Shown: in pieces, positions 36,510 to 38,763 of the stretch
How the letters are laid out: the number at the start of each line of letters is the position of its first letter
How positions within the stretch are numbered: position 1 is the stretch's first letter
NCBI GenBank assembly: GCA_030295235.1
Contig: AP026172.1
Location: 248,001-312,000 of the forward strand
Source: Fistulifera solaris
Taxonomy: Eukaryota
Direction: 5' to 3'
Length of the DNA: 64,000 nt
Translations under genes and position numbers: made by a program
The notes under the pieces: model-generated
The model's input: only the letters and a program-made list of their open reading frames with translations
Told to the model about the DNA's origin: nothing
Database searches by the model: none

Positions 36510-38763
36510 ATGTCTCATTACGGAGGAGGGCCTGGTGGCGGCGGATACAGTCGGTAAGTTGTCTGTATTTAGACGAAGTAGCTGAGTCACAAAAATGACA
36601 CTCACATGACTTGCTTTGCTTTATTGTTGCAGCGGTGGAGCTTATGGTAGCAGTGCATACGGCGGTAGTGGAGGAGGATACGGTGGATCTTACGGCGGCA
36701 GTAGTGGGTAAGTCATGCGGAAAAATCGCAATGCAGGAAAATGTAACATACAGAGCTCATTTAAATACTTCGTGCTGTCACAGCGGCGGTGGATATGGAA
36801 GCTACAGCGGCGGCGGCGCCGGAGGATACGGAGGAGGAAGTTATGGAGGAGCTTATGGTAGCGGCGGAGCTGGAGGGTACCAAAGCAGCTACGGGGCTCC
36901 TTCAGGAGGCGGTGGCTATCAGTCCTCAAATTTGGGAGCAGGGCTCTCGCAGATTGACTTTGCCAACACGGAACTGGTCCCTTTCGAAAAGAACTTTTAC
37001 ATTGAGCACCCTGACGTAACAAAAAGAAGCGAGCAAGAAGCAAACGAATGGAGGGCTTCCAAAAATATCTCGGTGAGCGGAACGGATGTACCCAAGCCTG
37101 TCATGACGTTTGATGAAGCATCCATGCCAGAGTATGTGCTCACCGAAGTTCTTAAGTGCGGCTTTGATACGCCTACACCCATTCAGTCGCAAGGATGGCC
37201 CATGGCTCTCAAAGGCCGAAACATGGTTGGCATCAGTGCCACCGGTAGTGGCAAGACCCTGGCTTTTCTTCTTCCCGCAATGGTTCACATCAACGCACAA
37301 GTAAGTACAAGGCGCGTTTGACTGACGTTATTGAGTTGTCTTGTGCAGGAAAACCCTCTTTTGAAATCAGATTAGTCGCATCATAAGTGCTGTGCGGGTG
37401 GCAGTTCTCGCGTCTTTCGTTGCTTACAAATGATCGATTATTGTAAGTAACGATTTTACGGCGGGAGATCTGTTTCCCTGTCACATCACGTTGGTTGCGG
37501 CTGCAAATCTTAGAAAGGAACCAGAGGAATGGGAGCAGCTTTTCGCAACTCGATTTATCTGGAAACTTAACGGTGCATTTTCTTTCTTTAGGCGTATCTG
37601 AAACCTGGTGATGGACCTATTGTTCTTGTTTTGGCTCCTACTCGTGAACTCGCCGTGCAAATCAAAGAGGAGTGTGACAAATTCGGAGCATCGTCGGATA
37701 TCAAAAACACTGTCGTGTACGGAGGCGTGAAGAAAGGTACCCAGGTTCAAGCGTTGCGTGCGGGTATTGAGATTCTTATTGCTACGCCAGGACGATTGAT
37801 TGATCATTTGGAGCAAGGAAACACCAACCTGCGCCGCGTGACTTACTTGGTTATGGACGAGGCCGATCGAATGTTGGATATGGGTTTTGAGGTACGTCGG
37901 ATGTTAGGCGCTGGAAAATCGTGAAAGACGAAGCATTTCTCCTGTTCACAATCTAATTCTTTGTTCTGTAACACAGCCGCAAATTCGAAAGATTTGTTCG
38001 CAGATCCGTCCCGATCGTCAAGTTCTCATGTGGAGTGCCACATGGCCAAAGGAAGTGCAGGCGCTGGCCAATGACTACCTTCGTGATTACTACCAAGTGA
38101 CCGTAGGCTCGTTGGATCTTTCTGGCAATAAGAACATTACGCAGATGATTGAAGTATGCACGGACCAGGACAAATACCGCAACTTATTGCGCATTCTTCG
38201 CGAGAACTATAGCGCAAAAGATCGTGTTCTTGTTTTCGTGGAGACCAAAAAAGGCTGCGACATGCTGTGTCGCTCTTTGCGCGCCGACGGTTATACCGCC
38301 CGAGCTATGCATGGTGACAAATCTCAGGAGGAACGCGACTGGACCCTTCGGGAATTCAAAAACAAGAATAGCACTCTTCTTGTTGCGACAGATGTTGCAG
38401 CGAGAGGTCTTGATGTTGACGATATCCGTATCGTCATCAATTTTGACTTCCCGAAAGAGATGGAATCCTATGTTCACCGGTGAGTTCTTCGTAGTTTCGT
38501 TGATGTCATTATGTTTTTTATTGTCAACTAACTTGGCCCGCTTCCTCAAAACACACAGCATTGGTCGTACCGGGCGTGGAGGAAAGACAGGTTTGGCTGT
38601 GTCCTTCTTTGTCGCGGAGAAGAATGGCCGTCTGGCCCGCGAGTTAGTCGAGATTTTGAAGCGCACTTCGCAAGTAATTCCTCCCGAGCTGCAAGCTATG
38701 GCTTCGTTTTCGAGTGGGGCGCCCAAACGTGGTGGCCGTGGTGGCGGTGGTCGTCGCTACTAA
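36510..38763 (+). CDS. DBP2: DEAD-box RNA helicase DBP2/p68 (DDX5/17 family)
   Basis: Gly/Tyr-rich N-terminus; [68 protein letters not shown] tail. Five introns, including 37301-37591. Confidence 0.96.
37398..37549 (+). promoter_or_regulatory. Structured intronic element (two hairpins) in DBP2 intron 3
   Basis: TCGTTGCTTACAA (37417-37429) pairs with TTGTAAGTAACGA (37441-37453). Outer pairing is GTGGCAG/CTGTCAC. A second stem is formed by GTTGCG..GCTGC / GCAGC..CGCAAC. Confidence 0.6.

Follow-up and report, generated by a model that had tools for sequence, protein, structure and literature searches.

A conserved hairpin over an internal 5' splice site in a diatom DBP2/DDX5-type helicase gene suggests a masked-donor splicing switch

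Introduction

Why would a gene whose product unwinds RNA keep one long and strongly folded intron among short ones, and what could such an intron do? The question is raised by a DBP2/DDX5-type DEAD-box helicase gene of the diatom Fistulifera solaris. It lies in a stretch of 64,000 nucleotides (nt) of contig AP026172.1 (assembly GCA_030295235.1, positions 248,001 to 312,000, forward strand), which is called the window here; all positions are counted from its first letter. The third intron of this gene directly follows the codons for ..HINAQ, and we refer to it and to its counterparts in related genes as the HINAQ intron. It contains a second, internal 5' splice site that is buried in a hairpin. 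Helicases of the DDX5/Dbp2 type reshape RNA structures throughout the whole transcriptome, and the amount in which they are present is critical. In plants, over-expression of DRH1, a helicase of this family, is detrimental (10.64898/2026.01.23.701338).

An earlier note on this DNA read the intron as a poison-exon switch, in which surplus helicase opens a stem and thereby frees the hidden donor for a cassette exon. The masking of the donor has held up, as it is indeed locked in a conserved and covarying hairpin; the cassette form has not, given that contigs of relatives retain the upstream part of the intron. Taken together, we assign a probability of roughly 0.55 to the reading that intron 3 is a masked-donor switch, self-limiting through the DBP2/DDX5-type helicase itself. 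Below we describe the hairpin, its conservation and the signs of its use, and weigh this reading against the alternatives.

The hairpin in intron 3

The introns of the gene are, in order, 79, 75, 291, 85 and 79 nt long, in agreement with the previous description of intron 3 as three to four times longer than the others. The positions given before for the intron, the CTGAC motif, the upstream AG, the TAG stop codon that closes the frame ENPLLKSD, the internal GTAAGT and the two arms of the stem are likewise all correct (Table 1). The apical stem pairs 37417-37429 with 37441-37453 in 13 base pairs (bp), one of them G-U, and is closed by a loop of 11 nt. It had also been described as extending outward, and the extended hairpin does run from about 37391 to 37485 with a z-score of about -6. 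The structure of this hairpin exceeds chance: folding of 37395-37487 yields -39.4 kcal/mol (z -6.1) and folding of the complete intron 3 yields -95.9 kcal/mol (z -4.2), values equalled by 0 of 200 shuffles in both cases. Were the internal donor used, the resulting 142-nt extension of exon 3 would meet its first in-frame stop, TGA at 37319-37321, six codons past the exon. Since this stop is reached straight from exon 3, an upstream mini-intron is unnecessary to poison the message.

Four small runs of F. solaris from one study (X1 to X4) could be compared with the window in the form of assembled contigs, which drop rare forms. X2 to X4 were treated as RNA-type, as their contigs skip introns, and X1 as DNA-type, as its contigs cover them; none of the four is recorded as RNA. 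A contig of X1 that represents a second haplotype covers about 37373-37508. Its six listed differences fall into the apical loop (three), an internal loop (two) and a bulge (one), so that the main stems are free of all of them, and the fold is kept at -38.6 compared to -39.4 kcal/mol. Among the differences listed, this is supportive of the hairpin, and only supportive.

The fold of the whole intron contains, in addition, a small hairpin at 37305-37346, in which positions +5 to +15 of the normal donor pair with 37336-37346. It stops just short of the AG at 37347-37348.

Intron position and hairpin conservation among relatives

In order to follow the intron through related genes, a specific part of exon 3 served as query against metagenome contigs. 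This resulted in 589 pattern matches, 472 of which were confirmed as relatives; the best 80 of these were analyzed, their exons being placed with tblastn, and they carry the L-numbers used below. An intron at the ..HINAQ site occurs in 52 of the 80 loci. In 43 loci an insert of 292-1715 nt directly after ..HINAQ is bounded by both exons, which makes the 291 nt of the window intron the shortest, and in 9 further loci the contig ends within the insert. GT/GC..AG ends are found in 38 of the 43 bounded inserts, the remaining 5 having no AG end. The insert is absent from 28 loci, mostly transcript-sized contigs or loci resembling brown algae, raphidophytes or fungi. In many loci the HINAQ intron is the sole intron between residues 85 and 531, and its position is common to six loci resembling non-diatom ochrophytes. 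Judged by this distribution, the intron position is old and the intron has been kept long; the position may predate the diatoms. A blastn comparison of the window intron with 42 related introns gave zero matches, so that the relationship is visible only at the level of the hairpin.

At this level it is clear. Short similarity islands between otherwise diverged introns led to the recognition of a hairpin family, which we call type A: a phase-0 intron after ..HINAQ holds a 5' arm YCGYTGCTTRCA, a loop of 3-20 nt and a 3' arm TGTAAGTRRCGR with the masked donor, and the sub-intron from this hidden donor to the acceptor measures 126-263 nt. The window hairpin is of this type. In an alignment of eight lineages the only invariant columns are GTAAGT and its partner letters. 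Over 15 stem pairs, 87.3% of the cells are paired and 8 pairs have changed on both sides, a combination that 0 of 500 shuffles equalled; sliding the stem partners by 1-3 columns lowers pairing to 23-50%. A covariance model built from this alignment (R1) was then searched against the window and the 80 loci, 316.5 kb in total, on both strands. It returned 12 plus-strand matches with an expectation value (E) <= 1e-9, every one within a HINAQ intron and one of them, L005, from outside the seed. The 9 remaining matches listed are six reverse-strand echoes and three weak ones (E >= 0.41), and besides such echoes no other match lies below E 0.006. When near-identical loci are collapsed, 9 lineages, including the window, possess the type A hairpin. 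With a model built without the window, the window hairpin is the top match in the 64 kb on both strands (19.6 bits, rough E 0.0024).

The structure is maintained beyond the apical stem. Apical stems measure 12-14 bp across the lineages (8 bp in L002), and although the lower stems of different lineages are unrelated in sequence, every lineage forms an extended hairpin. Regions of 116 nt around the hairpin have z-scores of -2.35 to -5.91 in all 9 lineages, with 0 of 200 shuffles equal in 7 of them, and in the eight lineages scanned, L005 not among them, the donor is predicted to be paired with a probability of 0.87-1.00. These comparisons of sequence confirm that the donor-holding hairpin is no chance stem, being conserved and covarying. 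The covariation in relatives that had been proposed as a check is therefore present, with its 8 two-sided pair changes and 9 lineages; at the same time many introns showed no obvious donor in a stem in simple scans.

A long imperfect hairpin is also what would be expected of an intron-hosted small RNA, such as a small nucleolar RNA (snoRNA) or a microRNA (miRNA)-like precursor, or of the remnant of an inverted-repeat transposon, and long introns of helicase genes often host snoRNAs. We regard such an origin as very improbable. A search of 36400-38900 against Rfam with E up to 10 returned only two chance-level matches, atoC (E 0.073) and mir-486 (E 9.4), neither of which came near its gathering score, and in 20 related loci there were no Rfam matches at the gathering score. 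C/D or H/ACA boxes in register were not found in the window intron by eye. Membership in an intron-hosted snoRNA or miRNA family was thus rejected, as neither a match to a curated family nor box motifs were present. Moreover, what is conserved is precisely a splice donor together with its complement, and relatives splice at the site. As for a transposon, R1 matches nowhere else in 316 kb, so the element is not a repeat.

Several further features of the related introns are worth recording. The HINAQ introns of L049, L051, L052/53, L058 and L074, whose best matches are brown-alga or raphidophyte proteins, are 675-1715 nt long and do not contain the type A hairpin. Five transcript-sized contigs of 1.9-2.4 kb (L014, L017, L028, L050, L058) carry a complete GT..AG HINAQ intron and none of the other introns; they may represent intron-retention transcripts, and a genomic origin is also possible. 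The Chaetoceros-like introns of L020 (631-670) and L030 (365-404) share a 40-nt island of 85% identity; it folds into a small hairpin free of donors, in which a C-G pair has been replaced by T-A as a compensatory change. A block of 126 nt with 70% identity connects L026/27/29 (intron position about 620-770) with L041/43 (661-784) and is followed by an internal GTAAGT or GTGAGT. Finally, a pyrimidine-rich block of 39 nt is conserved between L012 (307-345) and L017 (374-412) within diverged introns.

Probable use of hidden donors in relatives

In a second design, type B, an internal GTAAGT or GTGAGT forms part of the helix that closes a folded domain of about 130 nt, as found in L038 (z -4.36) and L014 (z -6.24). 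The same arms occur in L019 and L044. These last two loci belong to a group of four, together with L003 and L018, whose contigs are transcript-sized and keep the upstream part of the intron whole from the normal donor onward. The match of L044 to L038, which is genomic, breaks off immediately ahead of the internal GTAAGT and continues with the first base of exon 4; exactly one GT..AG piece of 238 nt is thus missing. In L019 the retained piece ends with the same letters as in L044, and in L003 and L018 the retained pieces end 9 and 16 nt past the type A 5' arm and are followed by exon 4. We read all four as RNA that was probably spliced from the hidden donor to the normal acceptor. The fifth insert without AG end is that of L039.

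The signals themselves are consistent with such use. The hidden donor is GTAAGT in 10 of 11 lineages and GTGAGT in the other one, and the extension that it would create carries in-frame stops in 11 of 11. The normal donor is often a weaker match than the hidden one, for example GTACGT, GTATGT, GTAAGA or GTGCGT. Sub-introns in the relatives measure 74-263 nt.

These contigs also bear on the form of the event. The proposal of a cassette poison exon at 37349-37442, preceded by a mini-intron of 48 nt (37301-37348), drew on signals that do exist, namely CTGAC, AG and an in-frame TAG. A length of 48 nt is, however, well below the 75-85 nt of the gene's other introns, the stop at 37319-37321 is already present without any mini-intron, and the four contigs that use the hidden donor keep the upstream part unspliced and leave the upstream acceptor unused. 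Because this part is retained, the event in relatives is an alternative 5' splice site and not a cassette exon. The mini-intron is neither needed nor seen, and on the grounds of intron size, retained upstream part and earlier stop the cassette was rejected as the main form; we hold it to be highly improbable.

The hairpin could, on the other hand, be a constitutive splicing aid only, one that collapses an over-long intron and incidentally buries a cryptic donor, with the alternative product being noise. The short introns elsewhere in the gene speak for this idea, the fold removes about 95-140 nt of effective length, and zipper stems of such a kind are known in yeast (PMC12311795). In addition, the RNA contigs of F. 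solaris show the normal junction only. A merely cryptic donor would nevertheless be expected to decay, whereas GTAAGT is invariant in 9 lineages whose surroundings have diverged beyond alignment and is often the better consensus match of the two donors. The alternative product is, furthermore, abundant enough to be the assembled form in contigs of four relatives. A purely constitutive role is therefore unlikely in our view, although it deserves to be kept in mind.

Proposed mechanism

The observations can be combined into the following model of a masked-donor switch. Intron 3 would be a regulatory intron in which a consensus decoy donor at 37443 lies nearer to the acceptor than the normal donor at 37301. 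With the hairpin closed, the decoy would be base-paired and only the normal donor available; the fold would also shorten the effective intron, which would then be removed as a whole to give coding messenger RNA (mRNA). With the stem opened, the strong proximal donor would be spliced to the normal acceptor, and the extended exon 3, with its stop after six codons, would make a non-coding transcript that is probably degraded. The stem would most likely be opened by the protein that the gene itself encodes, which would place helicase activity under negative feedback; for an enzyme that unwinds RNA, self-limitation suggests itself naturally. The balance between open and closed forms would also move with temperature. 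Opening of the stem by the helicase, use of the donor in F. solaris and decay of the product, for which the earlier note had proposed nonsense-mediated decay (NMD), are steps that we infer from the conserved element. The apical stems, 12-14 bp long (8 bp in L002), rest on bulged lower stems, an arrangement that lends itself to local separation of the strands; the unwinding range of DEAD-box enzymes is 10-15 bp (10.64898/2026.01.23.701338).

The same switch might be read by something else, be it temperature, with the intron as an RNA thermometer, another helicase or an RNA-binding protein. In the thermometer version the hairpin would be closed in the cold and more helicase would be made. The stability of a stem depends directly on temperature, and in plants opening of the stem alone was insufficient in one test system, specificity requiring the RGG (arginine-glycine-glycine) tail (10.64898/2026.01.23.701338); this last point can be set beside the glycine-rich tails that the window protein has at both ends. 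However, all lineages found to have the element carry it in the gene of the helicase itself, which is the signature of autoregulation, and we rate another reader as rather improbable.

A number of points weigh against self-limitation through a masked donor. The leave-one-out E-value for the window is modest and only roughly calibrated. Type A or type B designs were recognized in 16 of the 52 intron-bearing loci, the recognized cases being 11 loci with a type A hairpin found by R1, two with the 5' arm alone (L003, L018) and L014, L019, L038 and L044 with type B. In the other diatom-like introns and in all non-diatom ochrophyte-like ones a donor in a stem was not obvious in simple scans: scans for ungapped stems and pairing probability gave no clear case in L004, L010, L015/16/37, L020, L022, L026/27/29, L028, L030/31, L034, L036, L041/43, L050 and L059, nor in the ochrophyte-like L049, L051-53, L058 and L074. 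The RNA origin of L003, L018, L019 and L044 is deduced from their structure and not recorded, and in L003 and L018 a GT remains ahead of exon 4 at the junction, as would be possible only with ..GT|GT.. at the donor in their genomes; the donor context in L038 is ..GTG|GTAAGT. In F. solaris itself the normal junction 37300^37592 is present in contigs of two of the four runs (X2 and X4), and the junction 37442^37592 was not seen in the assembled contigs of X1 to X4. The junction 37300^37349, the other one by which the cassette had been expected to reveal itself, was not seen there either, and rare isoforms could escape such contigs. With -39 kcal/mol, the whole hairpin also exceeds what a DEAD-box enzyme unwinds in a single step, so opening would have to be local. 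Lastly, the opener could be another factor or temperature in place of DBP2, as the data do not distinguish between these.

Relation to known systems

The closest parallel to this diatom element comes from land plants. A hairpin known as the DEAD motif lies in the long fourth intron of Arabidopsis DRH1/RH14 and in RH46, where it covers an alternative 3' splice site (PMC12218528; 10.64898/2026.01.23.701338). Disruptive and compensatory mutations together with helicase-dead mutants showed that it senses the activity of DRH1, the orthologous helicase of land plants, in a negative feedback (10.64898/2026.01.23.701338). The coding form dominates, and helicase activity shifts splicing to non-coding forms (PMC12218528; 10.64898/2026.01.23.701338). 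Common to both systems are a host gene of the DDX5/Dbp2/DRH1 family, an unusually long intron, and a conserved covarying hairpin over an alternative splice site that yields stop-containing transcripts. The differences are equally plain. The plant motif is a single stem of 19-20 bp with a loop of 3-5 nt, whereas the window hairpin consists of a 13-bp apical stem with an 11-nt loop above four short bulged stems. The former covers a 3' splice site at the stem base, the latter a 5' splice site, the GTAAGT within its 3' arm. In the coding form of plants the exons join between ..LLRE and VLSAGF.. (PMC12218528), and the diatom site is found about 50 codons downstream in a different intron. Sequence similarity between the hairpins is not apparent. 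The diatom element would thus work like the plant motif but differs from it in shape, in the type of splice site and in intron position. By analogy, sensing of the helicase by the diatom hairpin would have its precedent in the DRH1 experiments. The plant authors describe the motif as plant-specific and absent from algae, on a data set of Viridiplantae only (PMC12218528; 10.64898/2026.01.23.701338). In the literature searched, we found no report of a diatom or stramenopile version; the masked-donor element resembles a known plant kind of switch.

The earlier note had invoked yeast DBP2 as precedent. Barta and Iggo are said to have described in 1995 a conserved autoregulated intron in yeast DBP2 and human DDX5, the position of which we take to be in the C-terminal domain at motif V. 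[quoted passage not shown] As would be the case in the diatom, a long intron of the same gene family, inefficiently spliced on the yeast side, lowers expression (PMC4695336). The portion of that source available to us describes no masked-donor hairpin (PMC4695336). The intron position differs as well: the fungus-like locus L077 has no HINAQ intron and breaks at ARGL|D, while exon 5 of the window gene (37977-38479) is continuous across ..AARGLD... The yeast case is consequently an analogy and not a homologue. A short intron at or near ARGL|D (motif V) is also present in the diatom-like loci L036 (about 2299-2387) and L060 (about 4744-4816), the ARGL|D intron of L077, from 1634, begins with GTAAGT, and the window gene has no intron at this place.

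Two more distant systems share parts of the logic. In tau exon 10, whose 5' splice-site stem-loop forms with downstream intron sequence, opening by DDX5/p68 was reportedly found by Kar et al. in 2011. There, too, a 5' splice site is held in a stem and made accessible by a DDX5-type helicase, as would be the case in the diatom; the target is, however, a mammalian gene other than the helicase's own, and opening promotes inclusion of a coding exon. In thiamine pyrophosphate (TPP) riboswitches, a metabolite bound by an aptamer gates alternative splice sites. Again an alternative pairing hides or exposes a splice site and leads to unproductive mRNA and feedback, but the signal is a metabolite read by an aptamer; in the diatom, where an aptamer is not evident, unwinding activity would presumably be the signal. 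Fungal and plant TPP riboswitches are also mentioned alongside the helicase motif of plants (10.64898/2026.01.23.701338).

Implications

The work on plants suggests that helicase-sensing RNA elements might be commoner (10.64898/2026.01.23.701338). The diatom element would add an independent case from a distant lineage, the second of its kind, located in another intron and at a 5' instead of a 3' splice site. It would also explain why the HINAQ intron is kept, and kept long, in genomes with otherwise short introns. We consider it conceivable, at odds slightly below even, that diatoms evolved their own sensor of RNA-unwinding capacity, opened by DBP2 and modulated by temperature, independently of land plants, fungi and animals. 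If this is true, three eukaryotic groups have converged on structured-intron autoregulation of one helicase family, each with a different intron and splice signal, and dose control of DDX5/Dbp2-type helicases is a near-universal requirement. The element is directly testable in transformable diatoms, and the diatom lineages supply a ready set of natural compensatory variants. It could serve as a simple in-cell reporter for RNA-unwinding capacity and may matter for cold adaptation in marine phytoplankton.

Gene structure and feature coordinates

Table 1. Features of the helicase gene and its third intron, in window positions
Feature	Position	Strand	Basis and remarks
DBP2/DDX5-type DEAD-box helicase gene	36511..38763	+	six exons; open frames, Pfam, RNA-type contigs
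Helicase exons	36511-36554, 36634-36708, 36784-37300, 37592-37891, 37977-38479, 38559-38763	+	TAA at 38761-63
Intron 3, phase 0, directly after ..HINAQ codons	37301..37591	+	GT 37301, AG 37590-91; 291 nt
Constitutive 5' splice site GTAAGT	37301..37306	+	sequence; RNA-type contig junction
Cassette-exon signals	37322..37375	+	CTGAC 37322-26, AG 37347-48, TAG 37373-75; present, no evidence of use
Predicted exon 3 extension if internal donor used	37301..37442	+	142 nt, frame-shifting; by analogy with L003, L018, L019, L044
Extended hairpin, 13-bp stem atop four short lower stems with bulges	37391..37485	+	folds, z -5.9 to -6.1
Apical stem 5' arm, complement of internal donor	37417..37429	+	sequence, alignment
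Apical loop, 11 nt	37430..37440	+	sequence, fold
Apical stem 3' arm, holds internal donor	37441..37453	+	sequence, alignment
Internal (decoy) 5' splice site GTAAGT	37443..37448	+	invariant in type A hairpins of 9 lineages; predicted pairing probability 1.00
Sub-intron from internal donor	37443..37591	+	149 nt; branch-like CTTAAC 37566-71, acceptor AG 37590-91

In the translation of the gene, Pfam places the DEAD domain on exons 3 and 4 and Helicase_C on exon 5. The closest named proteins are helicases of diatoms (Attheya, Cyclotella, Chaetoceros, Thalassiosira and others) with 74-84% identity over exon 3, several of which are labelled DDX5/DBP2 by their sources. Introns 1 and 2 are predicted from GT..AG ends and the reading frame only. 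For introns 4 and 5, the junctions 37891^37977 and 38479^38559 are found in contigs of three of the four runs (X2, X3 and X4). Contigs of X2 to X4 have zero cover over 37341-37583.

Two observations from the same runs concern related copies of the gene. Within 36450-38850, X1 contains two diverged gene forms, exemplified by a contig of 701 nt that aligns over 38013-38717 with 39 differences, which are dense in intron 5, and 4 gaps; these forms could represent a second haplotype or a close paralogue. At 37847-37891, the similarity of contigs from all four runs is confined to the final 44-45 nt of exon 4 and includes 4 differences; beyond it they continue into unrelated sequence. Their probable source is a DEAD-box paralogue with the DEAD..MLDMGFE stretch in common.

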